DNA from: Lysobacterales bacterium
GTDB lineage: Bacteria; Pseudomonadota; Gammaproteobacteria; Xanthomonadales; SZUA-5
Assembly: GCA_050250665.1 (NCBI GenBank)
Contig: JBFWOF010000035.1
Location: forward strand, 1,406 to 65,405
Direction of reading: 5' to 3'
DNA length: 64,000 nt
The notes below the pieces were generated by a model. It was not told the origin of the DNA. It was given only the letters and a program-made list of their open reading frames with translations, and searched no databases. The stretch's first letter is position 1; every line of letters starts with the position of its first letter. Below, one piece after another: positions 21,315 to 36,912 of this stretch. Both the position numbers and the translations under genes were made by a program.

Positions 21315-21372
21315 TGCGCCTGGCCAAGGAAGCTTCCATGAATCCATCACCTGACCCCATCCGGAGACTCCC

Positions 21373-21834: not shown

Positions 21835-21848
21835 AGCGAGAGCATTTA

Positions 21849-22652: not shown

Positions 22653-22656
22653 AGAC

Positions 22657-22968: not shown

Positions 22969-23009
22969 GCCTGCGTCCCTCCATCGTCCCCCGTCTGCGG
23001 AGTGTGCTG

Positions 23010-23819: not shown

Positions 23820-23831
23820 GAGCCCCAGACC

Positions 23832-24482: not shown

Positions 24483-26194
24483 TGCAGCGACGCGAATTCC
24501 TGCAGGTGCTGGCAGCGGCGGCAGTCGCGGGCAGCATGCCCGGCTGCGCAGGGGTGCGTCCGGACCGGGGTTTCGCCGGACTGTACGAGATCCCCCGCAG
24601 CGGCAATGTGCACCTGCTGCACTTCACCGACAGCCACGCCCAGCTGCTGCCCATCCATTTCCGCGAGCCCTCGGTCAACCTGGGTCTGGGAGAGGCACTG
24701 AACCGGCCGCCGCATCTGGTGGGCAAAGCCTTTCTGAAACAGTTCGGCCTGCAGCCCGACACCCCGGCGGCGCACGCTTTCACCTCGCTGGACTTCGTCG
24801 AGGCTGCTCGCCGGTACGGGCGGGTGGGCGGTTTTGCGCATCTGGCCACGCTGGTCCGACAGCTGCGGGCGTCACGACCGGGCGCACTGCTGCTCGACGG
24901 TGGCGATACCTGGCAGGGTTCGGCCACGGCGCTGTGGACACGCGGCCAGGACATGGTGGATGCCTGCAGGCTGCTCGGCGTCGACGTCATGACCGGCCAC
25001 TGGGAATTCACCCTCGGCGCCGAGCGCGTGCAGCAGATCATCGATCAGGACTTCGCCGGCAAGGTCGATTTCGTCGCCCACAATGTGGAAACGCGCGACT
25101 TCGGCGATGCGGTGTTCAAGCCCTATGTGATCCGCGAGAGCGGTGGCGTACCGGTGGCGATCATCGGTCAGGCCTTTCCGTACACGCCGATCGCCAATCC
25201 GGCGCATCTCATTCCCGACTGGAGCTTCGGCATCCAGGAAGAACATCTGCAATCGATGATCGATCAGGCCCGCGCGGAGGGCGCGCAGGTGGTGGTGCTG
25301 CTGTCGCACAACGGCATGGATGTCGATCTGAAACTGGCTTCGCGCGTGCGTGGTCTCGATGCCATCCTCGGCGGTCACACCCACGATGGAGTGCCGACGC
25401 CGATCGTGGTCAGCAATGGCGGCGGGCAAACCCTGGTGACCAACGCCGGCAGCAACGGCAAATTCCTCGGCGTGCTCGATTTCGATGTGCGCGATGGCAA
25501 GGTGATGGGTCACCAGTACCGATTGCTGCCGGTGTTTGCCGATGCGCTCCCTGCAGACACGGAGATGTCGGCCTTGATCGCCCGCGTCCGCGAGCCCTAT
25601 CTGGATCGCCTCAACGAGCCTCTGGCCGTGACCGACGACCTGCTTTACCGCCGCGGCAACTTCAATGGCAGTTTCGATCAGTTGATCCTGGACGCGCTGC
25701 TGGAGGTCAAGGATGCCCAGATCGCCTTTTCACCCGGTTTCCGCTGGGGCACCAGCCTGCTGCCCGGGGACACCATCCGCATGGAACAGCTGATGGACCA
25801 GACCGCGATCACCTATCCGCAGAGCACGCTGACGGAGATGAAGGGATCGATGATCAAGACCATCCTCGAGGATGTGGCCGACAATCTGTTCAACGCCGAT
25901 CCCTACTACCAGCAGGGCGGCGACATGGTCCGCGTGGGCGGCATGGATTACGCCATTGAACCGGGTGCGCCCGTCGGGCAGCGCATACGCGACATGACGC
26001 TGGTCGGGAAGCCGATCGAGGCCGACCACACCTACAAGGTGGCGGGATGGGCGCCGGTGGCGGCCAATGCCGAAGGCGAACCGATCTGGGATGTGGTGGC
26101 AACCTGGTTGCGCAGCCAGAAACGGGTTTCGCCGCGGCAACCACAACAGCCGCGACTGATCGGCATCAGCAACAATCAGGGTCTGAGCGCGTGA
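24479..26194 (+). CDS. soxB: Thiosulfohydrolase SoxB
   Basis: Tat leader MMQRREFLQVL. Dinuclear-metal 5'-nucleotidase-type blocks HFTDSHAQL, GGDTWQGS, LLSHNGMDVD and GGHTHD. 571 aa. Confidence 0.95.
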   Translation: MMQRREFLQVLAAAAVAGSMPGCAGVRPDRGFAGLYEIPRSGNVHLLHFTDSHAQLLPIHFREPSVNLGLGEALNRPPHLVGKAFLKQFGLQPDTPAAHAFTSLDFVEAARRYGRVGGFAHLATLVRQLRASRPGALLLDGGDTWQGSATALWTRGQDMVDACRLLGVDVMTGHWEFTLGAERVQQIIDQDFAGKVDFVAHNVETRDFGDAVFKPYVIRESGGVPVAIIGQAFPYTPIANPAHLIPDWSFGIQEEHLQSMIDQARAEGAQVVVLLSHNGMDVDLKLASRVRGLDAILGGHTHDGVPTPIVVSNGGGQTLVTNAGSNGKFLGVLDFDVRDGKVMGHQYRLLPVFADALPADTEMSALIARVREPYLDRLNEPLAVTDDLLYRRGNFNGSFDQLILDALLEVKDAQIAFSPGFRWGTSLLPGDTIRMEQLMDQTAITYPQSTLTEMKGSMIKTILEDVADNLFNADPYYQQGGDMVRVGGMDYAIEPGAPVGQRIRDMTLVGKPIEADHTYKVAGWAPVAANAEGEPIWDVVATWLRSQKRVSPRQPQQPRLIGISNNQGLSA

Positions 26195-26205: not shown

Positions 26206-26547
26206 TCAGGCGTATTTGCTAAGGATGCCAAGCACCTCGGTCATGCGTTCCTGGCGATCGACGCCATCGGCGCTGTCGCCGATTTCGCTTTCCAGCGTGC
26301 ACGCCATCATTTCAAAGAAGGCGCGATCCAGCGCCTTGCGCACCGCCGCCAGCTGCTGCGCGATGTCCTGGCAAGGCTCGTCCTGCTCGATCATCCGCAA
26401 CACACCCCGAATCTGCCCCTCGGCGCGACGCAGCCGCAGCACGACGCCGCGCTTGTGTTCATTGCGGCGTTCGTCGGCATTGTCGACCACGGCGCAGCGC
26501 GCAGGAGCGCGTCGTTTCAGTCTGGAAGTCTTGGGGGCGCTGGGCAT
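26206..26547 (-). CDS. CsoR/RcnR/FrmR-family (DUF156) transcriptional repressor, possibly thiol/persulfide sensing
   Basis: 113 aa from MPSAPKTS. Core LRLRRAEGQIRGVLRMIEQDEPCQDIAQQLAAVRKALDRAFFEMMACTLE. It has Cys residues but no His at the usual copper-ligand positions. Confidence 0.75.
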   Translation of the reverse strand: MPSAPKTSRLKRRAPARCAVVDNADERRNEHKRGVVLRLRRAEGQIRGVLRMIEQDEPCQDIAQQLAAVRKALDRAFFEMMACTLESEIGDSADGVDRQERMTEVLGILSKYA

Positions 26548-26629
26548 GGGGGCGGTCCGGATGCGGATGGCCCGATTTTGCCACAGCGGGTCTCGCGAAT
26601 CCCGGCCACGTTGACCCTGGAGCCGCGCC

Positions 26630-27061
26630 ATGAATGCTGATGCACTCCACCTGGCGCTGGCGGGCGGCCTGATGGTTGGCGCTGCCGCAGCCCTGCTGTA
26701 CTGGCTGAACGGGCGCATCGCCGGTGTCAGCGGCATCTTCGGCGATCTGTTCCTGGAGCGCGACGATGGCCACTGGCCCTGGCGTGCTGCCTTCCTGGCG
26801 GGACTGCTGATCGGCTTTGTGCTGATTCGTTCCCTGCATCCCGAACTGGCCCGGATTCACCTGCAAAGCGGGCCATGGGCCTTGATCGTCGCCGGACTGC
26901 TGGTCGGCTACGGCACGCGCATGAGCAGCGGCTGCACCTCCGGTCACGGCGTTTGTGGAATTGCCCGCATTTCCAGGCGATCGCTGCTGGCCACGGGTTC
27001 TTTCATGTTCGCGGCGATGCTGACAGTGGCCCTGATCCGCCACTCGGGACTCGGTCGATGA
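26630..27061 (+). CDS. Short YeeE/YedE-like membrane protein (set 2, half A)
   Basis: 143 aa with the SSGCTSGHGVCG loop. GGAG 7 nt upstream. Divergent from the CsoR-like gene (82-bp spacer). Confidence 0.75.
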   Translation: MNADALHLALAGGLMVGAAAALLYWLNGRIAGVSGIFGDLFLERDDGHWPWRAAFLAGLLIGFVLIRSLHPELARIHLQSGPWALIVAGLLVGYGTRMSSGCTSGHGVCGIARISRRSLLATGSFMFAAMLTVALIRHSGLGR

Positions 27062-27501
27062 GGCCGGTTTCGGCACTCGCTTGCGGCACCTTGTTCGGTG
27101 CTGGCCTGGCGCTGTCGGGCATGACCGACCCGACGCGGGTGCTGGGCTTTCTGGATGTGCTGGGAGACTGGGATCCGACGCTGCTGGTGGTCATGGCCGG
27201 CGCAGTGCTGGTCAGTTTGCCAGCCTTTCAATGGGCACGGCGACATCCGCGCCCCTTGCTGGATGTCCAGTTCTTCCATCCAGAGCGCACGCGGATCGAT
27301 TCCGATCTGGTGATCGGCTCGTCGGTCTTCGGCATCGGCTGGGGCATTGCCGGGCTTTGCCCCGGCCCCGCGCTCGCCGGCCTGGCGTCGGGGCGCTGGG
27401 AAGTCGCCGTGTTCGTCGCCGCAATGGCGGCGGGTATGGCCCTGCGGAGCTGGCAAGTTCGTCGGCGCGTCGCCGCCGGCGTCTTTCGTTGTCCAGGTTG
27501 A
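27058..27501 (+). CDS. Short YeeE/YedE-like membrane protein (set 2, half B)
   Basis: ATGA overlap with half A. 147 aa with the GIAGLCPGPA loop. Confidence 0.7.
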   Translation: MRPVSALACGTLFGAGLALSGMTDPTRVLGFLDVLGDWDPTLLVVMAGAVLVSLPAFQWARRHPRPLLDVQFFHPERTRIDSDLVIGSSVFGIGWGIAGLCPGPALAGLASGRWEVAVFVAAMAAGMALRSWQVRRRVAAGVFRCPG

Positions 27502-27599
27502 CCTAACACAAGCAGATTCTTGCGGCGCCGGAATAGGCTCTGCAAGAGTCACCACCAGTCGGAGCGCAACGCGTCGCCGGCGCCATGAGGGGGATTTTT

Positions 27600-28946
27600 A
27601 TGTCTAATTCATATACACCCAGGAGTATGTTTGCCCGTGCTTTGCCTGCCGCGATCGTGCTGATTCTGGCTGGGCCGGCTGCCGCCACCAACGGCTATTT
27701 CGCACTCGGCTACGGCACCAAGAGCAAGGGCATGGGTGGCACCGGCGTCTCGATGTCGCTGGATACCCTGGCGCCCGCGACCAATCCGGCCGCCCTCACT
27801 GGCGTCGATGAACAGATCGACCTGGGTATCGCCTATTTCTCGCCGGATCGCGGCTATGACGTCACCGGCGCGGCCACCGGGGCCTGCCTGTCGCCGCAGC
27901 AATGTACTTTTGGCGTGGGCCCGGAATCCCGGCGCAGTGATCGTGACTATTTCCTGATTCCGCACTTCGGCATTGCCCGTAAATGGAGTGACGAGGTCAC
28001 GGTGGGTATTGCGGTCTACGGCAACGGCGGCATGAATACCCGCTACGTCGGTGGCTCGGCCACGGTCGGTGCGCCGATGGGGACTGTACCTCCGGGTACC
28101 GCATTCACCCTGCCGGGTACCTTCGGCTCCGGCACGGCCGGTGTCGATCTGATCCAGTTGTTTGTGGCGCCCACCTACGCCCGTCGTTTCGACAACGGCG
28201 TCAGCATCGGCATCTCGCCGATACTGGCCATGCAGTCCTTCGAAGCACGTGGTCTGGGCAGTTTTGCGCCATTTTCCTCGGCGCCGACCAAGCTGACCAA
28301 TAACGGTCACGACCGCTCCTATGGTCTGGGTCTGAAACTGGGCATCCAGGCACCGATCGGCGAAAGCGCACGGTTCGGCGCTTCCTATCAGACCAAGATG
28401 TCGATGAGCGAATTCGACAGCTACGCCGGACTGTTCGCGGGGCAGGGCGATTTCGACATTCCGGCCTCCGCCACGGTCGGTTTCTCGGTGGCGGCCAGCG
28501 ATGCCTTGACCCTGGCCTTCGATGTCGAGTGGATCGGCTACGGCGGCGTCGATTCCATCGCCAATCCGATCTTTCCGAATCTGCAGCGCGCTCCGCTGGG
28601 CGCCGATGGCGGCGCCGGCTTCGGCTGGAACGACATGACCGTGTACAAGTTCGGCGCTGCCTGGCAAGCCGATGCCCGGAGCACCTGGCGCTTCGGCTAC
28701 AGCTTTGGCGATCAGCCCATCGATTCCAGTGAAGTCCTGTTCAATATCCTGGCGCCGGGCGTGGTCGAACAGCACTTCACCGTGGGCTACACGCGCGAAT
28801 CGGAAGGCGGCAACAGCTGGACGATCGCGGCCATGTATGCGCCGTCCAAATCGGTCAGCGGCATCAATCCGCTGGACCCGGCGCAGAACATCAAGCTGAG
28901 CATGGATCAGTTCGAATTCGAGTTCAGCTACACCTTCGGTAGATGA
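27600..28946 (+). CDS. FadL/TodX/OmpP1-family outer-membrane channel for hydrophobic compounds
   Basis: Signal peptide ...AIVLILAGPAAATNGYF. N-terminal hatch-type block GYGTKSKGMGGTGVS...APATNPAAL. Beta-barrel-like alternating pattern and a terminal aromatic (..FEFSYTFGR). Confidence 0.75.
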   Translation: MSNSYTPRSMFARALPAAIVLILAGPAAATNGYFALGYGTKSKGMGGTGVSMSLDTLAPATNPAALTGVDEQIDLGIAYFSPDRGYDVTGAATGACLSPQQCTFGVGPESRRSDRDYFLIPHFGIARKWSDEVTVGIAVYGNGGMNTRYVGGSATVGAPMGTVPPGTAFTLPGTFGSGTAGVDLIQLFVAPTYARRFDNGVSIGISPILAMQSFEARGLGSFAPFSSAPTKLTNNGHDRSYGLGLKLGIQAPIGESARFGASYQTKMSMSEFDSYAGLFAGQGDFDIPASATVGFSVAASDALTLAFDVEWIGYGGVDSIANPIFPNLQRAPLGADGGAGFGWNDMTVYKFGAAWQADARSTWRFGYSFGDQPIDSSEVLFNILAPGVVEQHFTVGYTRESEGGNSWTIAAMYAPSKSVSGINPLDPAQNIKLSMDQFEFEFSYTFGR

Positions 28947-29014
28947 CATCGCGCTGGTCCATGCCCGGCGCTGCCTGCAGGAACCTCGTCGGCGGCCATT
29001 CCGGCCGCCGACGG

Positions 29015-29467
29015 TCAGGGTTTGATGTAGGCGGCGCCTTCGGCAATCTGCAGTCGGGCGATTTCAGCGACGCCGGAAGGCACGATCTGCACGTCTGGCA
29101 ACAGGCTTGCGGCGTCGATGCTTCGGCTTTTCAGGGTGTTGCCGCAGACCCGGAATTCCACGCCTTCCAGCATCAGCGGGTCGACCAGCGCGTCATAGGA
29201 ATTGCCGCGGTCGTCGGCGTGACCATCGAGCAGAAAATCGACGCCAGCGCCCAGGGCGACGACCACGATGTGGATGGTCGGATCGGCCGCATGGTGATTG
29301 TTGATGTTGCGCAGCATCGCAATGGCTTGCTTGCTGTCGTCGAGGTGGTAGACGACCGTGCGCTTCGCTTCGGTGGAGCCTTCGGCAATCAGTCCCGAAC
29401 TGACACACAGCGCCCAGCAGGCAAACAGCAGCATTGCGGGCAAGCGGCGATAGGGGATTGGGAACAT
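29015..29467 (-). CDS. Secreted DsrE/DsrF-like family protein
   Basis: 150 aa with a signal peptide. DsrE-like fold blocks VVYHLDD, IHIVVVALGAGVDFL and FRVCGNTL. Confidence 0.6.
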   Translation of the reverse strand: MFPIPYRRLPAMLLFACWALCVSSGLIAEGSTEAKRTVVYHLDDSKQAIAMLRNINNHHAADPTIHIVVVALGAGVDFLLDGHADDRGNSYDALVDPLMLEGVEFRVCGNTLKSRSIDAASLLPDVQIVPSGVAEIARLQIAEGAAYIKP

Positions 29468-29601
29468 TCGGGCGAGCTCCTGAGGGCTGCTGAGGGCTGC
29501 GGAAGGGCGCGTCGGCCAGTCTGCCGACGCAGTGTACCGAAGGCGCCCGGGATTGAACTTGACCGGGCGCGGCGGAAAGTCGTGCGGACTTTGATATGCA
29601 T

Positions 29602-29620
29602 CATGGCTAAATTAGCTATG
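29602..29620. promoter_or_regulatory. AT-rich near-palindrome CATGGCTAAATTAGCTATG in the DsrE-like / octaheme cytochrome divergent promoter region
   Basis: 8 of 9 positions pair. It lies in the only low-GC stretch between the two divergent genes. The core GCTAAATTAG also occurs, inverted, at 14532-14541. Confidence 0.25.
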
Positions 29621-29718
29621 GTGCGTATAAAGAGTCATGAAGGAGCCGTGGAAATTGCTGGCGCGAGTTCCACGGGTCTGCCTGGCCCGCGGCCATCGAC
29701 CGATTTCGGAGCATTGCG

Positions 29719-31170
29719 ATGAAGATGCGCTTTCCAGCCTGGCTGATCGGTCTGATCGTCATCGCCTTGCTGATCGTCCTGCCGACACTCTACTTCCTGC
29801 CCTCGGCAGAGCAGACCCAACTGCCAGCCGCCGGAATTCCCGAGCGCGCGGTGCACGTGGATCACGCCGACATCGTCAAGGGCGATTTCAAGAGCGGGCA
29901 GGAGGTGACACGCGCTTGCCTGGTGTGCCACGAGGACGCGGCGGCCGAACTGATGCGCACCAGCCACTGGACCTGGGAGTCAAAGCCCTACAACGTGCCC
30001 TGGCGCGAAGGCGCCGTGACCATTGGCAAGATCAACCAGATCAACAACTTCTGCATCGGCACCCAGGGCAACGAGAACAAGTGCATGAGTTGCCACGCCG
30101 GCTATGGCTGGGAAGCCGGCCGCGCCGCCCAGCAGGCCAATCCGGAAAATGTCGATTGTCTGGCCTGCCACGCCGACCCCGGCATCTATGGCAAAGGCCT
30201 GTTCGGCAACCCCGCAGAGGGCGTCGACCTGCTGGCTGCCGCCCGAAGTGTGCGTGCCACGACCCGTGAGAACTGCGGCAAATGCCATTTCGATGGCGGC
30301 GGCGGCAACGGCGTGAAGCATGGCGATCTGGACGAGAGCATGTACTTCCCGAGCCAGTCGCTGGATGTGCACATGGGTGGCGAGCACAACCTGCAGTGCA
30401 GCGATTGCCATGTCACCAGGGCGCACCAGATTCTCGGTCGAATCATCGCTGACAACTACACCATCGAGCCTGCCGAGCAGGTCTCATGCACCCAGTGCCA
30501 TACGGGCAAGATCCACAAGGACGAGCGCATCGGCACCCATCTGGCGGCAGTGGCCTGCCAGACCTGCCATATTCCGGCGATCGCGCGGGAAGAGCCGACC
30601 AAGGTGACCTGGGACTGGTCCAAGGCCGCCGATGCCAGCCGCGCCGAGGATCACTACAGCTATCTCAAGATCAAGGGCGAATTCACTTATGAGTCGAATT
30701 TTGCCCCCAGCTATCTGTGGTTCAACGGCAACAACGAGTACCGCTATCTGCTCGGCGACAAGATCAATCCGGACGGTCCCACCTACATCAACAAGCCGGC
30801 CGGCAGCATCAACGATGCCAGGGCGAAGATCTTCCCCTTCAAGCTGCACAAGGCCAGGCAGCCCTACGACAAGGTGCATCAGTACCTGCTGCAGCCGGTG
30901 ACCTCGGGCAAGGACGGATTCTGGACGAACTTCGACTGGAACCAGGCCTTCGAACTGGCGGTGCCGATTACCGGACTGGCCTACAGCGGTGAGTACGATT
31001 TCACCGAGACCTACATGTACTGGGCCACCACCCACATGGTGCAGCCGGCGCGCGATGCCTTGCAGTGCGAAGCCTGCCACTCGGCCACGGGCAAGCCCGG
31101 TCGGCTCGACTGGGAGGCCCTGGGATATCCCGGTGATCCCATCGAATGGGGCGGGAGGAAGCTGCCATGA
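29719..31170 (+). CDS. Octaheme c-type cytochrome, tetrathionate-reductase (OTR) family
   Basis: N-terminal anchor/signal and eight CxxCH motifs (CLVCH, CMSCH, CLACH, CGKCH, CSDCH, CTQCH, CQTCH, CEACH) in 483 aa. Size and spacing match the Shewanella OTR type as I remember it. Confidence 0.8.
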   Translation: MKMRFPAWLIGLIVIALLIVLPTLYFLPSAEQTQLPAAGIPERAVHVDHADIVKGDFKSGQEVTRACLVCHEDAAAELMRTSHWTWESKPYNVPWREGAVTIGKINQINNFCIGTQGNENKCMSCHAGYGWEAGRAAQQANPENVDCLACHADPGIYGKGLFGNPAEGVDLLAAARSVRATTRENCGKCHFDGGGGNGVKHGDLDESMYFPSQSLDVHMGGEHNLQCSDCHVTRAHQILGRIIADNYTIEPAEQVSCTQCHTGKIHKDERIGTHLAAVACQTCHIPAIAREEPTKVTWDWSKAADASRAEDHYSYLKIKGEFTYESNFAPSYLWFNGNNEYRYLLGDKINPDGPTYINKPAGSINDARAKIFPFKLHKARQPYDKVHQYLLQPVTSGKDGFWTNFDWNQAFELAVPITGLAYSGEYDFTETYMYWATTHMVQPARDALQCEACHSATGKPGRLDWEALGYPGDPIEWGGRKLP

Positions 31171-33848
31171 AGCACCACTTTCAGGCGATTGTCCTCCTGT
31201 GCTGCGCGCTCGTCGCGCCAGCCAGCACGCAGGCTGCCGATGGCCCCGGCGCCAATCGACTGCACCCCGACTTTGTCGTGCTGGATGCCAATGGCGTCAA
31301 TGTGCTGGACAGCGGCGCATCCCTGTCGACCATGAAGACCTGCGGTCAATGCCATGACACCGACTACATCGAGAGTCATGCCTTTCATGCCGATCTCGGC
31401 TTGAAGTCTTTCGCCGCCAACGCTGCATCCTGGGACTCCAGCCCCGGGCTGTTCGGGCGTTGGGATCCGCTGAGTTACCGATATCTGAGTCGCAGCGGCG
31501 ACGAGCGTCTGGATCTGTCCACGCCCGAATGGCTGATGCAGCTGGGTGAGCGCGTGGTCGGTGGCGGCCCCGCCATGCGGTCGCGCGCCGGGGCGGCACT
31601 GCCTGACCTGCCACCGGATGGCGCCAACCCGGAGAGCACGCTGCTGGGAGACTCCGGCGAGGTCACACCGTGGGACTGGGCAGCCTCGGGTGGCATGGAG
31701 ATGAACTGCTTCCTCTGCCATCTGGAGCAGCCCAATGTCAGCGCCCGCGCCGAGGCGCTGCACCAGGGCCAGTTTGCGCGCGCCAACACGGCCACCTTGT
31801 CGGGCTTGAACATCGTCGAGGCAGCCGGACAGGCCTGGGCCTGGAACCCGGCAGCCTTCAACGATCAGCGTGAGCTGCAGAGCAAGCTGGTGAACATCCA
31901 GGATCCGACCAACGCCAACTGCGCCGCCTGCCATGGCGAGGTGCACCCGGCCACGGACGAGCCCCTGACCATCAGCGCCTGCGATCTCGACTATCCGCAA
32001 ACAGCCACCACCGGTCAGGTGATTGCCTCGCAGCGCATCAATGCCTCGGGGGTGAATCTGGCCGGCAAGGCGGAGCTGCACCGCTCCTGGGATATCCATG
32101 CCGAGCGCCAACTGCAATGCACCGATTGCCATCACGCACTGAACAACCCGGCGCACCTGAGCCAGACCCAGGGCAACAATCCTGCCCATCTGCGCTACGA
32201 CCCGCGCTCGCTGGAGATCAACGAGTACCTGCGTCGGCCCGATCACAACTTTGCTCGTGGCCAGAGTGCCCAGTTCAATCTGGCACCCGAATACAAGGGC
32301 ACGATGCGCCGCTGCGAGAACTGCCACGACGCGGCTACCAGCCATCAGGCCTGGCTGCCCTATGTCGAAACCCATATGGCAGCGATGGCCTGCGAGACCT
32401 GTCACATTCCCAGGCTGCATGCGCCGGCCATCCAGAGCTATGACTGGACCCTGATCCGCACCGACGGCGCTGCGATCAGCAGCTGTAGAGGTGTCGAAGG
32501 TCCTCCGGGCGATGTCAGATCGCTGGTGACCGGCTACCAGCCGGTGCTGCTCCAGCGCCGCAACATCGATGGTCAGACTCTGCTGGCGCCGTACAACCTG
32601 ATCACCAGTTTCTACTGGGTATACCGGGACAGCGGCGGACAGCAGCGACCGGTGCGACTGATCGACCTGAAGCGGGCCATGCTGAAGGACGGTGCCCACG
32701 CGCCCGAGATCGTCGCCGCCTTCGATACGGACGGCGATGGCCGTCTGAGCGACACCGAACTGGTGATCGTCACGCCCGAACAGCAGCATTTGCTGCAAGC
32801 CAGGCTGAGTGCGCTGGGGCTTGTCGATGTGCACATCGAGGGGCGCGTGCAGCCCTACAGCATCAACCACAATGTCGTCCGCGGCGAAAATGCGCTGAAC
32901 GACTGCCGCGCCTGCCACAACCAGGGTTCCAGGCTGACGCAGTCCATGCGTCTGGCGGATCACGCGCCGGTGCTGCCGGAATTCGTCGCCACCACCAATG
33001 TCAGCGGCAGCGGCGAGATGATCCGCGATCAGGCCGGAGCGCTGATCTATCAACCGCAGCCCGCACAGGATGGGCTGTACATCTTTGGCGCCAGCCGCAA
33101 CAGCTGGATGGACCGTCTGGGGGCCCTGGCCTTTGCCGGCACCCTGTTCGGTGTCTTCGCTCACGGCAGCCTGCGTTACCTGGCGTGGCGGCGACGGCCG
33201 CATGGCGTGGAACACACCCGACGCGTGCGTATGTACGACGCCTATCGCCGCTTCTGGCATTGGCTGCAGGCCACCAGCATCCTGGTGTTGCTGATGACTG
33301 GCCTGATCATCCATCGGCCGGACATCTTCAGCGCTTTTTCCTTCCGCGGCGTGATCACTCTGCACAATGTGCTGGCGGTGATTCTGGTGGTCAACGCGGT
33401 GTTCTCGCTGTTCTATCACCTGGCGACCGAGCGCATGCGCGAATACATCCCGCGTCCGCACGGCTTCTTTGACGATTCCATTGCCCAGACCAGGTACTAC
33501 CTGTCCGGCATCTTCAAGGGCGAACCGCATCCCTTCGAGAAGAGCCCGGACGATCGCATGAACCCGATCCAGAAGCTGACCTACTTCGGCATCCTGAATG
33601 TGCTGTTGCCGCTGCAGATATTGACGGGCGTGCTGATCTGGGGCGTGCAGCGCTGGCCGGAGTTGGCCGGCAGCCTGGGCGGCTTGCCGCTGCTGGGGTC
33701 GGTGCACTCACTGGTGGCCTGGCTGTTTGCCAGTTTCATTGTTGGCCATGTGTATCTGACCACCACCGGCGCGACGCCGCTGGAGGGCATCCGCGGCATG
33801 GTGACCGGTTACGAGGAAGTCGAGGATCACCCCGGGAAATCGCAGTGA
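31167..33848 (+). CDS. Fusion protein: periplasmic heptaheme cytochrome c + C-terminal membrane cytochrome b (PhsC / Ni-hydrogenase-b type)
   Basis: ATGA overlap with the OTR gene and GGGAGGA SD. Signal peptide MKHHFQAIVLLCCALVAPASTQA. Seven CxxCH motifs (CGQCH, CFLCH, CAACH, CTDCH, CENCH, CETCH, CRACH). DTDGDGRLSD loop. The C-terminal ~250 aa carry multiple TM helices with conserved His (RFWHWLQ, TLHNV, SVHSL, VGHVY). Confidence 0.8.
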   Translation: MKHHFQAIVLLCCALVAPASTQAADGPGANRLHPDFVVLDANGVNVLDSGASLSTMKTCGQCHDTDYIESHAFHADLGLKSFAANAASWDSSPGLFGRWDPLSYRYLSRSGDERLDLSTPEWLMQLGERVVGGGPAMRSRAGAALPDLPPDGANPESTLLGDSGEVTPWDWAASGGMEMNCFLCHLEQPNVSARAEALHQGQFARANTATLSGLNIVEAAGQAWAWNPAAFNDQRELQSKLVNIQDPTNANCAACHGEVHPATDEPLTISACDLDYPQTATTGQVIASQRINASGVNLAGKAELHRSWDIHAERQLQCTDCHHALNNPAHLSQTQGNNPAHLRYDPRSLEINEYLRRPDHNFARGQSAQFNLAPEYKGTMRRCENCHDAATSHQAWLPYVETHMAAMACETCHIPRLHAPAIQSYDWTLIRTDGAAISSCRGVEGPPGDVRSLVTGYQPVLLQRRNIDGQTLLAPYNLITSFYWVYRDSGGQQRPVRLIDLKRAMLKDGAHAPEIVAAFDTDGDGRLSDTELVIVTPEQQHLLQARLSALGLVDVHIEGRVQPYSINHNVVRGENALNDCRACHNQGSRLTQSMRLADHAPVLPEFVATTNVSGSGEMIRDQAGALIYQPQPAQDGLYIFGASRNSWMDRLGALAFAGTLFGVFAHGSLRYLAWRRRPHGVEHTRRVRMYDAYRRFWHWLQATSILVLLMTGLIIHRPDIFSAFSFRGVITLHNVLAVILVVNAVFSLFYHLATERMREYIPRPHGFFDDSIAQTRYYLSGIFKGEPHPFEKSPDDRMNPIQKLTYFGILNVLLPLQILTGVLIWGVQRWPELAGSLGGLPLLGSVHSLVAWLFASFIVGHVYLTTTGATPLEGIRGMVTGYEEVEDHPGKSQ

Positions 33849-33917
33849 TGAAGCGAGGAATACGGCCCCGGCTGTGGCGAAAGCGGCAGTCCCGGGCAAT
33901 CAACGAGGAGTAGCGTG

Positions 33918-34463
33918 ATGGCGATGAGATTCATCCAGGCGGTCTTCAAGCGGCAGGAAAAGCCCTATGTGCATCCCTATCTGGCTGGTGCCATCCTGGG
34001 TGTCGTGCTGTTTCTGGCTTTTCTGCTGACTGGCAACGGACTCGGCTCATCGGGGGCCACCAGCCGCATCGATGCGGCCCTGGTCGACATGGTGGCGCCC
34101 GCCCACGTCGACAACAATCCCTATCTGCTGAAAATGGCCGGAGGCGACAAGAACCCGCTGGACGACTGGATCGTGCCGGTGTTCCTGGGCGCCTTGCTCG
34201 GTGGCTTCAGCTCCGGCGCGCTGAATGGACGCCTGCGCCTGACCACGACCAAGGGCCCGAACATCTCCAACGGCATGCGCTGGCTGATGTCATTTCTGGG
34301 CGGCGTGATCTTCCTCTACGGCGCCCGTATGGCCCGCGGCTGTACCTCGGGGCAGGCACTGTCCGGCGGCGCCACGCTGGCTGCCGGCTCGTGGGTGATC
34401 ATGTTTTCGATCTTTGCCGGCGCCTACGCGCTGGCCTATTTCGTGCGCCGTCTGTGGCTGTAG
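33918..34463 (+). CDS. YeeE/YedE-family transporter half-protein A (set 3)
   Basis: GAGGAG 7 nt upstream. Conserved ARGCTSGQALSG loop. Confidence 0.8.
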   Translation: MAMRFIQAVFKRQEKPYVHPYLAGAILGVVLFLAFLLTGNGLGSSGATSRIDAALVDMVAPAHVDNNPYLLKMAGGDKNPLDDWIVPVFLGALLGGFSSGALNGRLRLTTTKGPNISNGMRWLMSFLGGVIFLYGARMARGCTSGQALSGGATLAAGSWVIMFSIFAGAYALAYFVRRLWL

Positions 34464-34493
34464 CGCGGCTACGCAACGATTGAGGAGAAGGTC

Positions 34494-35795
34494 ATGCATT
34501 TTCCACTGGAAGCATTCGGCGCCGTCAGCGCCAGCAATCCGTGGACCTATCTGGTGTTCGGCGCCATCGGCTATGCCTTCGGGTTCACGCTGGAGATGGC
34601 GGGATTCGGCGATTCCCGAAAACTCGCCGGCCAGTTCTATTTCCGGGAACTGACGGTCTTCAAGGTCATGTTCACGGCCATCGCGGTGGCCATGGTCCTG
34701 ATCTGGGGGGCGGTGGGACTGGGGTGGCTGGATTTCAGCCAGGTCTGGGTCAATCCCACCTATCTGGGATCGGGCATCGTGGGCGGACTGATCATGGGGG
34801 TCGGCTTCATCGTCGGCGGCTTCTGCCCAACCACCTCGCTGGCCTCGGCATCCACCGGCAAGATCGATGGCATGTTCTTCATGCTAGGCGGCTTCGTCGG
34901 TGCCTTCCTGTTTGCCGAGACCCAGGGCTCCTACGACCACTGGTACAACCACGCCGGCTATTACGGGCGGCTGACCCTGGATCAGGTGTTCGGCATTCCG
35001 GCACCGGTGATCGTGCTGATCGTGGTCTGCGCGGCGCTGTTCTTCTTCTGGGGTAGCGAGCGCGTCGAGCACGCGGTTGCCGGCAAGAACCTGGCTGCAG
35101 AACCGGGTATCCGCAAGTTCGGCGCTGCAGGTCTGTTGGCGGCGGCGCTGATGGTGCTGCTGATCGGCAGTCCGACACTGGACGATCGCTACCAGAAACT
35201 CAGCTTCCAGCGTACCGAAACCATCGAGCAGGAGAACGCCGAAGCGCTGACCTCGACCCGGGTCTACAGCGCCGACGAAATGCTGGCGAAGCGCCTGGTG
35301 TTCACCTCGCCAGCCGAAGCCTTCAAGGCCCGCTACAACCAGGCGGTCAAACCGATCTTCCTGGATGTGCGCCGGGAATCCGACTACAACCTCTACCACA
35401 TCGCCGATTCCATCAGCGCGCCGCTGGAGAGCCTGGCCGGGCGCGTGCCCGAGCTACTGGCCGAGCCGCCCGGAAATACGGTCATCGTGACCATCAGCAA
35501 CGACGAGTCCGCGGCCGTCGCCGCCTGGAAGCTGCTGGTGGCATCGGGCGTGCCCAATGTCTACGTGCTCGAGGGCGGTATCAATCGCTGGATCGCGTTT
35601 TTCGGCAAGGAGGACAGCCTGTTGCAGCCGCTGGTCGATGCTGCCGATGACGAACTCGGCTACGCCTTCAAGGCCGCGCTCGGCAGTCGCTATCCCTCCT
35701 GCGCGCCTGACCCGATAGCACACGAACGTCTGGAGTTCGATCCGCGCATCGTGCTGCAGCTCAAACGCGACAAGTCCGGTGGTGGCTGCGGGTAG
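34494..35795 (+). CDS. YeeE/YedE half-protein B fused to a rhodanese-like domain lacking the catalytic Cys, ending in GGGCG
   Basis: GAGGAG SD. N-terminal membrane part with GGFCPTTS. C-terminal rhodanese homology (IFLDVRRESDYNLYHIADSI ... VTISNDESAAVAAWKLL ... LEGGINRW) with Ser where the active-site Cys normally sits. Last residues KRDKSGGGCG. Confidence 0.8.
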   Translation: MHFPLEAFGAVSASNPWTYLVFGAIGYAFGFTLEMAGFGDSRKLAGQFYFRELTVFKVMFTAIAVAMVLIWGAVGLGWLDFSQVWVNPTYLGSGIVGGLIMGVGFIVGGFCPTTSLASASTGKIDGMFFMLGGFVGAFLFAETQGSYDHWYNHAGYYGRLTLDQVFGIPAPVIVLIVVCAALFFFWGSERVEHAVAGKNLAAEPGIRKFGAAGLLAAALMVLLIGSPTLDDRYQKLSFQRTETIEQENAEALTSTRVYSADEMLAKRLVFTSPAEAFKARYNQAVKPIFLDVRRESDYNLYHIADSISAPLESLAGRVPELLAEPPGNTVIVTISNDESAAVAAWKLLVASGVPNVYVLEGGINRWIAFFGKEDSLLQPLVDAADDELGYAFKAALGSRYPSCAPDPIAHERLEFDPRIVLQLKRDKSGGGCG

Positions 35796-35951
35796 AGCTG
35801 GTGTCGGTGGTGGGTGTCGGTGCCGGATGAGAGTTCCGATCGCCCCTGGCGGCGCGCTGGTTCGCGGATCAAACAAGGGGCAGGGGGCAGGGGGCAGGGT
35901 ACCCATCTCGCCGCCCGGTCAGAACGATGTGGTGGGCTCGGAGCGAATTTG

Positions 35952-36368
35952 AGGAGGGCCGCGCGCCTGCGCGGCCGCTCTTGATCTCCGGGCATTGAAA
36001 AGCGGCGCCGCAGCGCGGCGCCCTCCACATCGACCGCCCGCAATCCCGCGCCCTCTCGCGTACATGTGATTCATGGAGAGCCGCTTGTATAGGCCCGACA
36101 CTTGGCGCGACTCGCGTTACTTCTCGCCCACTAGCGGACGGGAGCTCCAACGCGGAGAACGCCGAGAACCGCAGAGAACACAGAGAGAACCCCGTACGAA
36201 ACTGCTTTGCTTCTCTCCGCGTGCTCTCTGCTTTTCCTTCGCGTTCTCTGCGTCCAGCTTCTGATGTCAACCCGCTCAGGTTCTGGATTATCGCGGGTAA
36301 CATTCGTGACGCGAGGTCAATCCAGGTAAACACTGCCAGCCGTTGGGCACGCTGCGCTTAGCCCAACC
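35952..36368. repeat. BIME-like REP cluster, including the inverted copy of the 12574-12710 composite
   Basis: 35952-36028 is the reverse complement of 12634-12710, with both arms near-identical. 9-mer arrays (TTCTCYGCG-like) lie in opposite orientations at 36151-36190 and 36211-36253. TTGGGCACGCTGCGCTTAGCCCAAC hairpin at 36344-36368. Confidence 0.85.
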
Positions 36369-36912
36369 TACCATTCAAGGTCCGTGCGCAGGGTGGGGCC
36401 GATGTCAGGGCCATGGCGTACTGGCACAGCTCGTCATCCTCGGGTTTCACCCGATAGCGCTGCTCCAGTTGCATGCCCAGCTGCTCCAGCAGATGTCTGG
36501 AGCGGATGTTTTCGGGCGAGGTGATGGCCAGCAGCCGGGTCATCCCGAATTGCTCGCGTGCCATTTTCACGCAGGCGCGGGCGGCTTCCAGCGCGTAGCC
36601 AACGCCGGCATATTGGGGCAGCAAGGCGTAGCCGAGGTCCGGCTCGGGCAGGGTCTCGCGCTGGAGCAGGCCGCAGAGGCCGATCAACTGTTGGTCGACC
36701 TTGCGCTCGATGGCGTAGAGCCCGAATCCGTAGCGTTGGTACATCTCGAGCGGACCTTTGCGCAGATATTCCTGGGCATCGGCCAGCGTGCGCACGCCGC
36801 GATCGCCGATGCCCGCCAGCCAGGTCGGATCATTGACCAGCTTGAAGATGAATTCGGCATCGGCCAGTTCCAGCCGCCGCAGGATCAAGCGATGGGTTTC
36901 GGCTACAGGCAT
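36358..36912 (-). CDS. GNAT-family N-acetyltransferase (RimJ/RimL-like)
   Basis: 184 aa: HRLILRRLELADAEFIFKLVNDP ... GYALLPQYAGVGYALEAARA. Confidence 0.75.
   Translation of the reverse strand: MPVAETHRLILRRLELADAEFIFKLVNDPTWLAGIGDRGVRTLADAQEYLRKGPLEMYQRYGFGLYAIERKVDQQLIGLCGLLQRETLPEPDLGYALLPQYAGVGYALEAARACVKMAREQFGMTRLLAITSPENIRSRHLLEQLGMQLEQRYRVKPEDDELCQYAMALTSAPPCARTLNGRLG

Follow-up and report, generated by a model that had tools for sequence, protein, structure and literature searches.

A conserved four-gene cassette that combines an OTR-family octaheme cytochrome, a heptaheme-c/cytochrome-b fusion and a putative split YeeE-type channel

The window, a stretch of 64,000 nucleotides, contains four genes that, judging from their sequences, form a conserved unit and compact operon (29719-35795). 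They encode an octaheme cytochrome of the tetrathionate reductase (OTR) family, a heptaheme-c/cytochrome-b fusion and two membrane proteins that may together build a sulfur channel. We consider that this unit has an even chance of being a periplasmic enzyme that uses quinol to reduce tetrathionate or a related sulfur compound and that is coupled to product capture and import. The features discussed below are as follows.

29015..29467, minus strand: DsrE-like protein with an N-terminal hydrophobic leader, divergent (PF02635, E=1.2e-10)
29719..31170, plus strand: gene 1 (otr), octaheme c-type cytochrome of the tetrathionate reductase family, 483 aa
30028..30096, plus strand: OTR catalytic signature of gene 1, Lys104, Cys112 and heme 2 motif C122-MSCH (residue-level alignment to 1SP3)
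31167-33848, plus strand: gene 2, heptaheme-c/cytochrome-b fusion (seven CxxCH and C-terminal PF01292)
31167..31238, plus strand: predicted Sec-type signal peptide of gene 2, residues 1-24, MKHHFQAIVLLCCALVAPASTQA followed by AD; hydrophobic segment at residues 5-26
31239..33101, plus strand: predicted periplasmic heptaheme c domain of gene 2, OTR-fold paralogue with seven CxxCH
32724..32759, plus strand: canonical EF-hand-type Ca2+-binding loop inside the heptaheme domain, gene 2 residues 520-531, DTDGDGRLSDTE
33102..33848, plus strand: membrane domain of gene 2, a linker TM helix (TM0) and a di-heme cytochrome b with four helices (HyaC/FdnI/PhsC type, PF01292)
33915..34463, plus strand: gene 3, putative C-terminal half (H8-H13) of a split YeeE/TsuA-type sulfur channel (PF04143 columns 168-309)
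34494..35174, plus strand: membrane part of gene 4, putative N-terminal half (H1-H7) of a YeeE-type channel (PF04143 columns 11-170, residues 45-208) and an extra TM helix (residues 208-226)
35175..35738, plus strand: rhodanese-like domain of gene 4 without the catalytic Cys, predicted periplasmic (PF00581, 47.8 bits)
35739..35795, plus strand: flexible C-terminal tail of gene 4, ...KRDKSGGGCG-COOH, a candidate sulfur-carrier arm with Cys432 (tail conservation)

Gene order, hosts and neighbourhood

The cassette was compared across 80 related loci, and the denominators given here count the loci whose contig extends far enough. The order of otr, heptaheme/b fusion, YeeE C-half and YeeE N-half with rhodanese was retained in 77/77, 77/77 and 74/74 loci, and gene 3 was found in 77/77. 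In the window, the intergenic spacings of genes 1-4 are -4, +66 and +30 bp, and all open reading frames lie where an earlier note on this DNA had placed them. That note had proposed a unit of two genes. Its pairing of OTR with the c/b fusion is strict (77/77 loci), but two further genes (33915-35795) always follow, and the four proteins probably act as one unit.

The hosts are 65 Chloroflexota and 15 Proteobacteria, most of them Anaerolineales; the proteobacterial hosts include the sulfur/iron oxidisers Thiobacillus, Parasulfuritortus (P. cantonensis LSR1, locus L015) and Gallionellaceae. Outside the closest relatives, the flanks of the cassette hold no conserved genes, nor are nitrogen-cycle genes conserved near it. 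The best reading is that the cassette is self-contained and has spread horizontally. The earlier description of its location as a Sox island is correct for this window, where soxC, D, Y, Z, A, X and B occupy 18911-26194, but is lineage-specific: the linkage to Sox, DsrE and FadL was seen in two Lysobacterales loci of 80 (L001 and L056), and no sox genes lie near the cassette in the 65 chloroflexotan loci. The secreted, divergent DsrE-like protein mentioned earlier is encoded on the minus strand, matches PF02635 and has a hydrophobic leader. In L056 its counterpart is downstream of the cassette, beside a FadL-like gene. Since this linkage is limited to L001 and L056, the DsrE-like gene is placed outside the module.

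The octaheme cytochrome and its fused partner

Gene 1 contains eight CxxCH motifs, at residues 67, 122, 147, 186, 227, 257, 280 and 450. It scores 551 bits with TIGR04315 (cutoff 375), matches PDB 1SP3 with E=5e-128 and shares 45% identity with a Shewanella OTR. By sequence, gene 1 is a true OTR-family octaheme cytochrome and is predicted to be catalytic, which strengthens the earlier description of an OTR-like protein with eight CxxCH in 483 aa. In the residue-level alignment, Lys104 corresponds to Lys56, which ligates heme 2 in 1SP3, and Cys112 to Cys64. Both residues are invariant in 74/74 orthologues, as are all eight heme motifs. The N-terminus forms a conserved hydrophobic helix, which is a signal peptide or a signal anchor.

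Gene 2 starts at an ATG at 31167 that overlaps the gene 1 stop codon as ATGA, as the earlier note had read it, and the Shine-Dalgarno-like GGGAGGAA lies immediately upstream. Its signal peptide is probably cleaved before AD. The seven CxxCH motifs (residues 59, 181, 252, 318, 383, 409 and 580) are invariant in orthologues. The heme domain is colinear with the OTR family (hhalign, Prob 97.5%, E=8e-12), and it scores 51 bits with TIGR04314 (MmcA) and 32 bits with TIGR04315, each under its cutoff. In the colinear alignment with OTR, nothing in the domain occupies the positions of heme 2, the Lys ligand or the active-site Cys. Ten invariant non-motif His residues in the N-terminal domain are available for bis-His ligation of the seven hemes. 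On this alignment, the heme domain is a paralogue of OTR in which the catalytic heme is missing, as it is in archaeal MmcA.

The calcium-loop-like motif noticed earlier in gene 2 is near-invariant across orthologues, with the consensus D-x-[ND]-x-[DNS]-G-x-[LIV]-x-x-x-E in about 76/77 of them. The EF-hand-type loop is also present in 26/35 fused and 56/69 unfused family representatives. It is the best-modelled stretch (pLDDT 77-89) of an AF2 model of gene 2 that is poor overall (mean pLDDT 56).

The C-terminal region, previously described as a multi-TM b-type cytochrome with four conserved His contexts, matches PF01292 at residues 690-881 (E=2.4e-25, 89.8 bits). The best-scoring named model is PhsC, NF011582 (142 bits, cutoff 204), and Foldseek matched 6G94_A and 1KQF_C with TM-scores of 0.62-0.66. 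His698, His733, His847 and His861 align with the E. coli HyaC His residues at WHW, IH, WH and GHVY, which we take to be the heme b ligands of HyaC. Loops 669-696 and 753-803 are rich in K/R and are predicted to face the cytoplasm. The motifs (7 + 8 CxxCH), the EF-hand-type loop positions and these His residues are invariant or nearly so in 74-77 orthologues, and are thus not chance occurrences.

The fusion itself is real. In the wider family, 69 of the top 150 cluster representatives at 50% identity are unfused heptaheme proteins, which have one TM helix at the C-terminus. An assembly or frameshift artefact joining two genes, which the earlier note had allowed for, is nevertheless practically impossible and is excluded by the comparative data: all 80 independent loci, from many assemblies and two phyla, encode the heme domain and the b domain without interruption in a single frame. 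For alignment, 76 of these 80 loci yielded a complete open reading frame of about 890-1000 aa, and 77 genomes besides this one carry the fusion intact. Homologues in the database number at least 1,948, the best 120 of which are full-length or nearly so, and the fused form accounts for 35 of the top 150 representatives.

The putative split YeeE-type channel

Genes 3 and 4 seem to encode jointly a split YeeE-type sulfur channel. Gene 3 has four TM helices, and its K/R profile predicts both termini to be cytoplasmic. StYeeE residues 239-328 align to it, and its Cys143, 99% conserved, matches the essential Cys293. In gene 4, Cys111 is invariant in orthologues and may be equivalent to StYeeE Cys91, given its position in the N-half and the analogy with PmpB.

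Gene 4 has six hydrophobic segments, and the mean K/R content per loop across orthologues is 0.01, 2.3, 0.03, 1.0, 1.4 and 5.6. Since H7 of StYeeE ends in the cytoplasm (topology, PMC7449682) and gene 4 is predicted to comprise H1-H7 and an extra TM helix, the chain would be returned to the periplasm. This homology mapping and the charge counts suggest that the C-terminal arm is periplasmic; on the other hand, the first 15 residues past TM6 are fairly K/R-rich (mean 3.3).

The soluble domain of gene 4 matches rhodanese folds in Foldseek. Its catalytic-loop position is Met or Ile in 74/74 orthologues, within the loop [MI]-S-N-D-E-x-A-A. Although the AF2 model of gene 4 is poor overall (mean pLDDT 55), pLDDT is mostly about 65-88 for residues ~240-400. 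The tail is modelled with pLDDT <50 and lacks secondary structure. Its sequence DKSGGGCG is exact in 70/73 orthologues and GGCG is retained in 72/73, and the SoxY of the same window ends in ...KVTLGGCGG.

Proposed function and comparison with known systems

Gene content, co-occurrence, domain architecture and conservation of catalytic and ligand residues are direct observations; the substrate of the module and the direction of its electron flow, as proposed below, are inferred. The di-heme cytochrome b of gene 2 would exchange electrons with the quinone pool, and the heptaheme domain would relay them through the periplasm to OTR, standing in for the route through CymA and a soluble cytochrome proposed in Shewanella. 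The earlier suggestion that no separate NrfH/CymA-type protein is needed beside gene 2 fits the constant pairing of the two genes (77/77) and the lack of such a partner in Shewanella-type otr operons. OTR would reduce an S-S-bonded sulfur compound, most likely tetrathionate, either free or as an S-thiosulfonate formed on a thiol. The Cys-less rhodanese-like domain and the Cys arm of gene 4 may trap the sulfur species or pass it on, and the split channel would then import it.

The link to sulfur is provided by the conserved YeeE channel cysteines and the GGCG tail. PhsC, the nearest named model for the b domain, is the quinol-oxidising subunit of thiosulfate reductase. Ubiquinone and menaquinone both have potentials below +198 mV, and the position of the tetrathionate/thiosulfate couple above them favours the reductive direction. 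This value is the E0' of the couple quoted in PMC8528874. The predominance of Anaerolineales hosts with no sox genes nearby counts for the same direction, as does the 36-fold increase of otr transcripts in sediment Acidobacteriota after tetrathionate addition. Against a tetrathionate role, a Shewanella sp. ANA-3 strain lacking both ttr and otr did not differ from the ttr single mutant in its handling of tetrathionate, and in vitro OTR reduces nitrite and hydroxylamine better than tetrathionate; sulfite has also been proposed as a substrate. The reductive reading is further weakened by the small driving force that ubiquinol gives for tetrathionate reduction, and if the quinol site is cytoplasmic as in FdnI, outward transfer opposes the membrane potential. 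The large sulfur-oxidation island in the window could also indicate an oxidative role.

In that case, OTR would oxidise thiosulfate to tetrathionate, or couple it to a carrier Cys as SoxAX does with SoxY, and the electrons would pass via the heptaheme and b hemes to the quinone pool, supplementing Sox lithotrophy. The cassette lies directly downstream of soxCDYZAXB and further genes of sulfur oxidation, and the sulfur- or iron-oxidising proteobacterial hosts are in line with this role. The b domain has the HyaC/FdnI-type fold, and cytochromes of this type classically pass electrons from periplasmic oxidations to quinone. Work by Mowat in 2004 reportedly showed that OTR catalyses both directions in vitro. 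However, a couple at +198 mV is too positive for the reduction of ubiquinone or menaquinone, Sox linkage is confined to 2/80 loci with Anaerolineales-type Chloroflexota as hosts of 65/80, and PhsC comes from a reductase. We regard the oxidative direction as unlikely.

It also seems improbable that OTR is a reductase of sulfite (or another sulfur oxyanion) of the MccA/SirA kind, in which quinol electrons would reduce sulfite to sulfide or sulfane sulfur, and a persulfide on the Cys arm would be passed to the YeeE-type channel for assimilation or cytoplasmic metabolism. A 2026 study of Shewanella sp. ANA-3 suggests a sulfite-reducing OTR and points out that all eight hemes of OTR can be superimposed on those of MccA. 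A link to zero-valent sulfur uptake has been made for PmpAB relatives, which are short YeeE-type halves, import of sulfane sulfur from a periplasmic carrier has been proposed for the YeeE-like SoxT, and the Cys arm would suit a persulfide carrier. The ANA-3 phenotype with sulfite is slight, however, and the authors of that study present the idea as hypothetical; moreover, the copper site of MccA sets it apart from OTR, and the cassette contains no MccC/MccD-type partner genes.

Reduction or detoxification of nitrite or hydroxylamine by OTR and the heptaheme/b protein, with the YeeE-type genes functionally separate, is very unlikely. It would agree with the higher in vitro efficiency of OTR on both compounds and its structural relationship to NrfA and HAO, but hardly explains why a sulfur channel and a Cys-arm protein are strictly syntenic with the pair in two phyla with unrelated flanks, or the lack of conserved nitrogen-cycle genes nearby.

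Several genome papers mention in passing an otr gene followed by a cytochrome b gene, so that this adjacency alone is not new. In the open-access literature, we found no paper characterising the four-gene module, and hence not the already characterised module that the earlier note had allowed for. The conserved cassette offers a concrete way to find the physiological role of OTR, for which we favour the quinol-linked reductase outlined above.

Gene 1 is a full-length homologue of Shewanella oneidensis OTR (SO_4144, PDB 1SP3), with the eight heme motifs, heme 2 Lys and active-site Cys retained. The Shewanella-type operon consists of a monoheme cytochrome c, DUF3373 and otr, without cytochrome b or YeeE genes, and its OTR is soluble and thought to be fed from CymA via the soluble cytochrome STC. 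Unlike it, the otr of the cassette encodes a protein with a hydrophobic helix at its N-terminus, is paired with a dedicated membrane partner and is constantly linked to the sulfur channel.

MmcA of the Methanosarcina Rnf complex (TIGR04314) is derived from OTR; it kept seven bis-His hemes but neither the catalytic heme 2 nor its Lys, so that what was an enzyme fold now serves as an electron conduit to a membrane carrier. The N-terminal domain of gene 2 scores better with the MmcA model than with the OTR model, yet far under the MmcA cutoff of 250. MmcA has two non-canonical heme motifs, whereas all seven of gene 2 are canonical CxxCH. The gene 2 domain is also bacterial, fused to cytochrome b, partnered with OTR rather than Rnf, and carries large insertions and the EF-hand-type loop.

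CbcL of Geobacter sulfurreducens shares the design of a HydC/FdnI-type di-heme b and a periplasmic multiheme c in one polypeptide, linking the quinone pool to periplasmic acceptors. The two differ in other respects: CbcL has nine hemes, a small domain of ~29 kDa and six TM helices, and serves extracellular electron transfer via PpcA, whereas the OTR-fold heptaheme domain of gene 2 is 620 residues long and is joined to five TM helices. With PhsC, HyaC and FdnI (PF01292), the b domain shares its fold and the four His at HyaC ligand positions, but the cassette lacks PhsAB, hydrogenase or formate dehydrogenase partner genes, and the additional invariant His666, His716, His751 and His788 have no HyaC counterpart.

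Genes 3 and 4 together span the Sulf_transp fold of the YeeE/TsuA thiosulfate transporter (PDB 6LEO), although their TsuA model scores are far below the cutoffs and no YeeD/TsuB (TusA-like) partner gene is conserved alongside. The known split YeeE forms PmpA and PmpB, about 130 aa each, lack helix H7. In contrast, gene 4 has H7 and an extra TM helix, the rhodanese-like domain and the Cys tail. This tail (...GGGCG) resembles that of SoxY (...GGCGG), a flexible Gly-rich C-terminal Cys arm; in the periplasm, SoxY passes sulfur adducts from one enzyme to another. DsrC uses a penultimate Cys on a C-terminal arm, and the periplasmic Sud of Wolinella, which is rhodanese-like, carries sulfur for a respiratory reductase. 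Gene 4 differs from SoxY in lacking the SoxY (PF13501) domain, and its arm, a candidate sulfur carrier, extends from a rhodanese-like domain tethered to a transporter half.

The four-gene cassette and its surroundings

The conserved unit comprises four genes, only half of which the earlier note had picked out. All of the open reading frames (ORFs) that it named are present in the window. The four genes, hereafter the cassette, are as follows.

29719-31170 (+), gene 1: otr, encoding a cytochrome of the octaheme tetrathionate reductase (OTR) family
31167-33848 (+), gene 2: fusion of a heptaheme-c domain and a cytochrome b domain
33915-34463 (+), gene 3: C-terminal half of a YeeE-type channel
34494-35795 (+), gene 4: N-terminal half of a YeeE-type channel, with a rhodanese-like domain and a Cys-containing tail

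A scan of GTDB with one genome per species found a relative in 141 genomes, from which 80 loci were kept (65 in Chloroflexota, mostly Anaerolineales, and 15 in Proteobacteria). Tblastn with the window proteins recovered one gene order in the 80 loci, namely otr, the fusion, YeeE half 1, and YeeE half 2 with the rhodanese domain. Where the contig extends far enough, otr is present in 77 of 77 loci, gene 3 in 77 of 77, and gene 4 in 74 of 74. The proteobacterial hosts include Ideonella, Rubrivivax, Rhodoferax, Thiobacillus, Gallionellaceae, Rhodanobacteraceae, and the cultured Parasulfuritortus cantonensis LSR1, and the closest (96%) is a Lysobacterales MAG. The identity of OTR to that of the window is approximately 70-77% in many Anaerolineales, 73-80% in other Proteobacteria, and 59-62% in a few Chloroflexota. 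Since these identities are similar across phyla and the neighbour survey of the loci found no conserved flanking genes around the cassette, the comparison points to horizontal spread of the cassette as a self-contained unit. PLSDB contained no full-length gene 2 fusion, only PhsC-like b subunits with 32-38% identity, and thus gave no evidence for a plasmid vehicle. A scan of 28900-36500 for promoters and terminators yielded no signal stronger than in shuffled sequence, and the limits of the operon are accordingly drawn from gene spacing and synteny; unrelated housekeeping genes lie downstream of 35795.

The best PLSDB match (NZ_CP119424.1, Photobacterium sp. DA100, 1709646-1710467) covers gene 2 residues 564-891 with 33% identity. 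The matched stretch runs from the last part of the heme domain through the linker helix and the b domain; it is unannotated in that record and may be a distant family member on a secondary replicon.

An ArsR-type regulator was considered as a core part of the cassette and rejected, because it is confined to Chloroflexota: tblastn placed it directly upstream of otr in 59 Chloroflexota loci and in none of the 15 proteobacterial loci, and it is absent from the window. This ArsR-family HTH protein (loci L002, L004, L006, and 56 others) has 115 aa and a single conserved Cys, with the motif NFCAAL. In the 56 loci that make up the neighbour cluster, its gene is on the otr strand and precedes otr by a median of 10 bp; the protein is likely a lineage-specific regulator of the cassette.

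The earlier note had located the cytochromes in a Sox island. The soxC, D, Y, Z, A, X, and B genes are indeed found upstream of the cassette at 18911-26194, and the sulfur island continues leftward with metallo-beta-lactamase-fold genes, a further Sulf_transp half, and a rhodanese gene. The linkage to the cassette, however, is incidental, as it occurs in only two Lysobacterales loci (L001 and L056). The divergent DsrE-like gene was also recovered, with a DsrE domain detected by Pfam in the ORF at 29015-29467. L001 and L056 are the only loci in which DsrE, FadL, and Sox genes accompany the cassette, and these genes were therefore rejected as parts of the system. The FadL/TodX-family outer-membrane channel gene (27585-28946) and the DsrE-like gene travel together, upstream of the cassette in the window and L001 and downstream in the Rhodanobacteraceae locus L056 (12718-14662), and may be an accessory pair for the uptake of hydrophobic sulfur species. 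Further features of the sulfur island are listed below.

15286-15852: further Sulf_transp half
21869-21902 (inverted), 22059-22092, 22150-22182, and 22585-22612 (direct): four copies of the repeat ATCTGCGGACATCTGTGACATCTGCGGA, 28-34 nt
22206-22652: PD-(D/E)XK nuclease-family ORF in the soxY-soxZ insertion (PF13366, E=1e-36)
26206-26736 (-): CsoR/RcnR-type ORF between soxB and the PmpA-like gene (C-terminal 80 residues, PF02583, E=4e-21)
26630-27061 and 27061-27501: PmpA/PmpB-like short YeeE halves (Sulf_transp; DUF6691), directly after soxB

The soxY and soxZ genes are split by an insertion of approximately 800 bp (21835-22635), which looks like a small mobile or REP-like element within the sox operon. 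The CsoR/RcnR-type ORF is conserved in L001; the true gene is probably shorter than the ORF, and its product could be a persulfide- or metal-sensing regulator of the sulfur island. With the cassette included, the 64-kb window contains three YeeE-type half-transporter gene sets. An 841-aa protein encoded at 47371-49896, which combines an N-terminal Ser/Thr protein kinase domain with a C-terminal FGE-sulfatase (formylglycine-generating enzyme-like) domain, is unrelated to the cassette.

Gene 1 and the c/b fusion of gene 2

OTR was crystallised in 2004, and 1SP3 from S. oneidensis is the sole solved OTR structure. Gene 1, which had been described as OTR-like with eight CxxCH motifs, contains all eight in 483 aa, and each is at least 95% conserved in an alignment of 74 orthologues. 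Its score with the OTR model TIGR04315 (NCBIfam) is 551.2 bits against a cutoff of 375, and the OTR C-terminal domain PF11783 was detected by Pfam with E=7e-57. 1SP3 matches gene 1 over nearly its full length (residues 49-476, E=5e-128), and the identity to a Shewanella OTR is 45%. In the alignment, K104 corresponds to Lys56 of 1SP3, the ligand of heme 2, and C112 to the active-site Cys64; both residues are invariant in all 74 gene 1 orthologues. As judged from these alignments, gene 1 is a true OTR and is predicted to be catalytically intact.

Residues 1-30 of gene 1 (window 29719-29810) form a long hydrophobic helix, e.g. WLIGLIVIALLIVLPTLYFLP, which is found in all cassette OTRs and has no obvious AxA cleavage site. 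This N-terminal helix could be an uncleaved signal anchor; the cassette OTRs may be membrane-anchored, whereas the Shewanella enzyme is soluble.

Gene 2 starts at the ATG at 31167, overlaps the stop codon of gene 1 as ATGA, and has GGGAGGAA directly upstream of its start. It encodes seven CxxCH motifs and, at residues 520-531, the loop DTDGDGRLSDTE, an EF-hand-type loop that matches the canonical Ca2+-binding consensus in approximately 76 of 77 orthologues. The c/b fusion seen in the window is reproduced in every one of the 80 loci, where the heme and b domains are contiguous in a single frame, and this excludes an artefact of assembly. At least 1,948 homologues of gene 2 were found in the protein database; the best 120 have approximately 840-925 aa and 64-96% identity and bear merely generic names, e.g. 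'thiosulfate reductase cytochrome b subunit' or 'cytochrome b/b6 domain-containing protein'.

The membrane domain of gene 2 consists of a linker helix (TM0) followed by four helices, and PF01292 covers residues 690-881 (E=2.4e-25; 89.8 bits against a gathering cutoff of 30.1). A Foldseek search with the AF2 model of gene 2, which recovered the membrane domain only and at moderate model confidence, gave 6G94_A (HyaC) and 1KQF_C (FdnI) with TM-scores of 0.62-0.66. The membrane-domain profile matched HyaC with E=9e-7, and in the profile alignment H698, H733, H847, and H861 correspond to the His residues of HyaC at WHW, IH, WH, and GHVY, which we take to be the heme b ligands of HyaC. The four 'His contexts' first noticed in the b domain thus align with HyaC positions; they are 99% conserved in gene 2 orthologues and reproduce the four-His ligand pattern, with one ligand in TM1, one in TM2, and two in TM4. 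We assign the b domain as a canonical di-heme b on the basis of this profile alignment. Its closest named model is PhsC (NF011582), the cutoff of which it does not reach (142.4 bits against 204), and Pfam, synteny, and the neighbour survey found no molybdopterin/FeS subunit genes (phsAB) within the cassette.

The membrane domain contains eight invariant His residues, four more than two b hemes need. The extra residues, H666 (in TM0, 33162-33164), H716 (33312-33314), H751 (33417-33419), and H788 (33528-33530), are unmatched in HyaC; they may belong to a third cofactor site, to a quinone site, or to a proton path.

For the heptaheme domain, the AF2 model, built from a 49-sequence alignment, had a mean pLDDT of 56 and values below 50 in the heme core and was unusable for heme mapping; profile-profile alignment was therefore used in its place. 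In hhalign, local mode with a low MAC threshold gave a colinear alignment, and the global-mode alignment was meaningless. The domain matches the OTR family with a probability of 97.5% and E=8e-12. The confident core pairs hemes 3-6 of gene 2 with hemes 4-7 of OTR, phmmer pairs heme 7 with OTR heme 8, and the extended hhalign alignment is colinear end to end. An Arg at a position that varies between K, Q, R, and E among orthologues lies opposite K104 of OTR, a Leu lies opposite C112, and 'RLDLST' with a 46-residue insert lies opposite the heme 2 motif. When gene 1 was compared with the N-terminal domain of gene 2 by BLASTP, the N-terminal third fell in another register than with hhalign, and the pairing of gene 2 hemes 1-3 with OTR hemes is uncertain. 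Because of this disagreement, we limit the claim to what hhalign and BLASTP have in common, namely that heme 2, K104, and C112 of OTR have no counterpart in gene 2. Since it aligns to OTR and lacks these three elements, the heptaheme domain is an OTR paralogue without the catalytic heme. Ten invariant non-motif His residues are available in it as distal ligands.

Two non-heme Cys residues of gene 2, C272 (31980-31982) and C440 (32484-32486), are near-invariant (70/77 and 69/77 orthologues, respectively) and might either be disulfide-bonded or be functionally important.

With the heptaheme domain alone as the query, 1.84 billion cluster representatives were searched exhaustively; 731 relatives had E<=1e-3, and of these 287 had E<=1e-30. 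Of the 150 top-ranking relatives, 35 carry a full cytochrome b in the same chain (32 of these with exactly seven CxxCH motifs) and 69 are full-length and unfused (51 with seven motifs). The c/b fusion thus represents one of two layouts that are common in a larger, unnamed family of heptaheme proteins with a membrane anchor. The sampled tails of the unfused relatives have a single TM helix at the end, and the His aligned with H666 is kept in five of the six shown.

The split channel and the candidate Cys arm of gene 4

Gene 3 (182 aa) matches columns 168-309 of Sulf_transp (PF04143), and residues 45-208 of gene 4 match columns 11-170. Gene 3 corresponds to residues 239-328 of StYeeE, the YeeE/TsuA thiosulfate transporter (PDB 6LEO), with Cys143 at the position of the essential Cys293. 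Cys111 of gene 4, which is invariant and the single conserved Cys of its membrane N-half, is probably the equivalent of StYeeE Cys91. Genes 3 and 4 together thus have the Sulf_transp fold with conserved channel cysteines, as in YeeE/TsuA. For the membrane half of gene 4, a phmmer search of the PDB failed to reach StYeeE; helices H1-H7 are mapped from the Pfam profile columns. The TsuA cutoffs are far higher than the scores of genes 3 and 4 (400-645 against 26-29 bits), and no conserved TusA-like (TsuB/YeeD) neighbour was found in the neighbour survey of the loci.

The AF2 model of gene 4 was poor in the membrane half, as expected without the partner, and only the rhodanese domain and the disordered tail were used. 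The rhodanese fold (residues ~240-400) is recognised by PF00581 with 47.8 bits against a cutoff of 22.2, and the Foldseek matches of this domain are rhodanese domains. The catalytic Cys of the rhodanese loop is absent, being Met or Ile in all 74 orthologues. The C-terminus of gene 4 reads ...KRDKSGGGCG; 70 of 73 orthologues have exactly this tail, and GGCG is kept in 72 of 73. The SoxY of the window ends in ...KVTLGGCGG. In gene 4, Pfam detected only Sulf_transp and Rhodanese, and no SoxY domain (PF13501). We take the tail, with Cys432, as a candidate carrier arm (hereafter Cys arm). At least 3,351 homologues of the gene 4 protein were found in the database, every one of them generically named.

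In StYeeE, the N-terminus is outside and the C-terminus inside, and H7 joins H1-H6 and H8-H13, with a cytoplasmic H7-H8 loop (PMC7449682). Gene 4 has six hydrophobic segments, and the mean number of K/R per loop alternates across orthologues (0.01, 2.3, 0.03, 1.0, 1.4, and 5.6). [quoted passage not shown] Homology to the YeeE N-half ends before the sixth helix, which would thus return the rhodanese-like domain and the Cys tail to the periplasm, probably to the side on which OTR and the heptaheme domain lie. The soluble domain, too, begins with a fairly basic stretch (mean K/R 3.3). For gene 3, both termini are predicted to be inside, as for H8-H13.

Direction, substrate, and known systems

The central proposal of the earlier note, an OTR with a dedicated c/b link to quinone, is supported. 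We infer that the four cassette proteins work together and that gene 2 is the dedicated link of OTR to the quinone pool. The reductive direction is favoured, since the tetrathionate/thiosulfate couple lies above the quinone potentials, which are below +198 mV, the hosts are mostly non-Sox Anaerolineales, and the b domain is nearest to PhsC. The value of +198 mV is that reported for the tetrathionate/thiosulfate couple (PMC8528874). The oxidative reading, for which the sox genes of the window might be cited, runs against these three points, and we consider it unlikely.

In the reductive scheme, tetrathionate would react with the arm thiol or the OTR Cys, OTR would reductively cleave the S-S bond with quinol-derived electrons, and the thiosulfate or sulfane sulfur product would be released at the channel mouth and imported. 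Tetrathionate addition to sediment microcosms raised the otr transcripts of an Acidobacteriota MAG 36-fold. According to a 2026 study, the physiological function of OTR has never been confirmed by any study, and a Shewanella sp. ANA-3 double mutant in ttr and otr did not differ from the ttr single mutant in its handling of tetrathionate. The same study raised sulfite as a candidate substrate; a sulfite-reducing cassette OTR seems improbable to us. The cassette gives OTR fixed partners, namely a dedicated quinone-coupling subunit that derives from a catalytically disabled OTR copy and a sulfur channel with a candidate carrier arm. These partners indicate sulfur rather than nitrogen chemistry and allow direct predictions; the reading of the OTR and gene 2 pair as a nitrogen-oxide system is very unlikely.

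OTR may act not only on a free small molecule: the Cys arm would be a SoxY/DsrC-style periplasmic carrier, connecting the active site of OTR with the entrance of the split YeeE channel by shuttling a covalently bound thiosulfonate or persulfide adduct between the two. We put this forward tentatively, as a possibility with the odds against it. If true, it would constitute a new carrier-mediated pathway in which quinone-linked periplasmic sulfur redox is joined directly to sulfur import, and it would answer, for at least one large OTR clade, the long-standing question of physiological function. At least 141 species-level genomes carry the cassette, which is also represented in thousands of metagenomic protein clusters; most are of Anaerolineales from groundwater, sediment, and wastewater. 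Given this wide distribution, it could be an overlooked route for the turnover of tetrathionate and sulfur intermediates and for sulfur uptake in those habitats. It thus offers a concrete, widely distributed genetic handle on the role of OTR and a possible new carrier-arm mechanism, and P. cantonensis LSR1 is available as a cultured host.

Each cassette component belongs to a known family, and the combination is undescribed and uncharacterised in the literature searched. Brief mentions of an otr gene followed by cytochrome b exist for Thermosulfurimonas dismutans, an Ignavibacteria genome, and the Guaymas Beggiatoaceae; they refer neither to a heme domain attached to the b subunit nor to the channel genes or the Cys tail. 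The Shewanella-type otr operon, with a monoheme cytochrome c, DUF3373, and otr, differs from the cassette, and the Malonomonas otr stands alone. In Shewanella, OTR and the soluble cytochrome STC interact, and STC is in turn fed by CymA. Gene 2 shares the architecture of CbcL of Geobacter, a known fusion in which one polypeptide combines a di-heme b domain in the membrane with a multiheme c domain in the periplasm (PMC9129911). In contrast to the nine hemes and ~270-aa heme domain (about 29 kDa) of CbcL, gene 2 has seven hemes in a domain of ~620 aa, a difference that rests on the description of CbcL.

The gene 2 heptaheme domain resembles archaeal MmcA, an electron conduit with the same loss of heme 2 and the Lys ligand. 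Consistent with this likeness, the MmcA model outscores the OTR model on the domain, although both scores are far below the cutoffs (51.4 bits against 250 for MmcA, TIGR04314). MmcA is encoded in an Rnf operon, but Pfam, synteny, and the neighbour survey found no rnf genes within or around the cassette. Gene 2 would thus be a second, independent case, after MmcA, of an enzyme fold reused as an electron wire.

YeeE/TsuA is a single nine-TM polypeptide, whereas the cassette channel is split over genes 3 and 4. The keyword-retrieved passages of the YeeE-family survey from the Dahl laboratory describe the PmpA and PmpB halves, contain no mention of a gene 2-type fusion, and propose the import of sulfane sulfur from periplasmic SoxYZ via SoxT. 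The cassette may physically connect a periplasmic carrier arm with a YeeE-type channel, a link until now only proposed for SoxYZ and SoxT.
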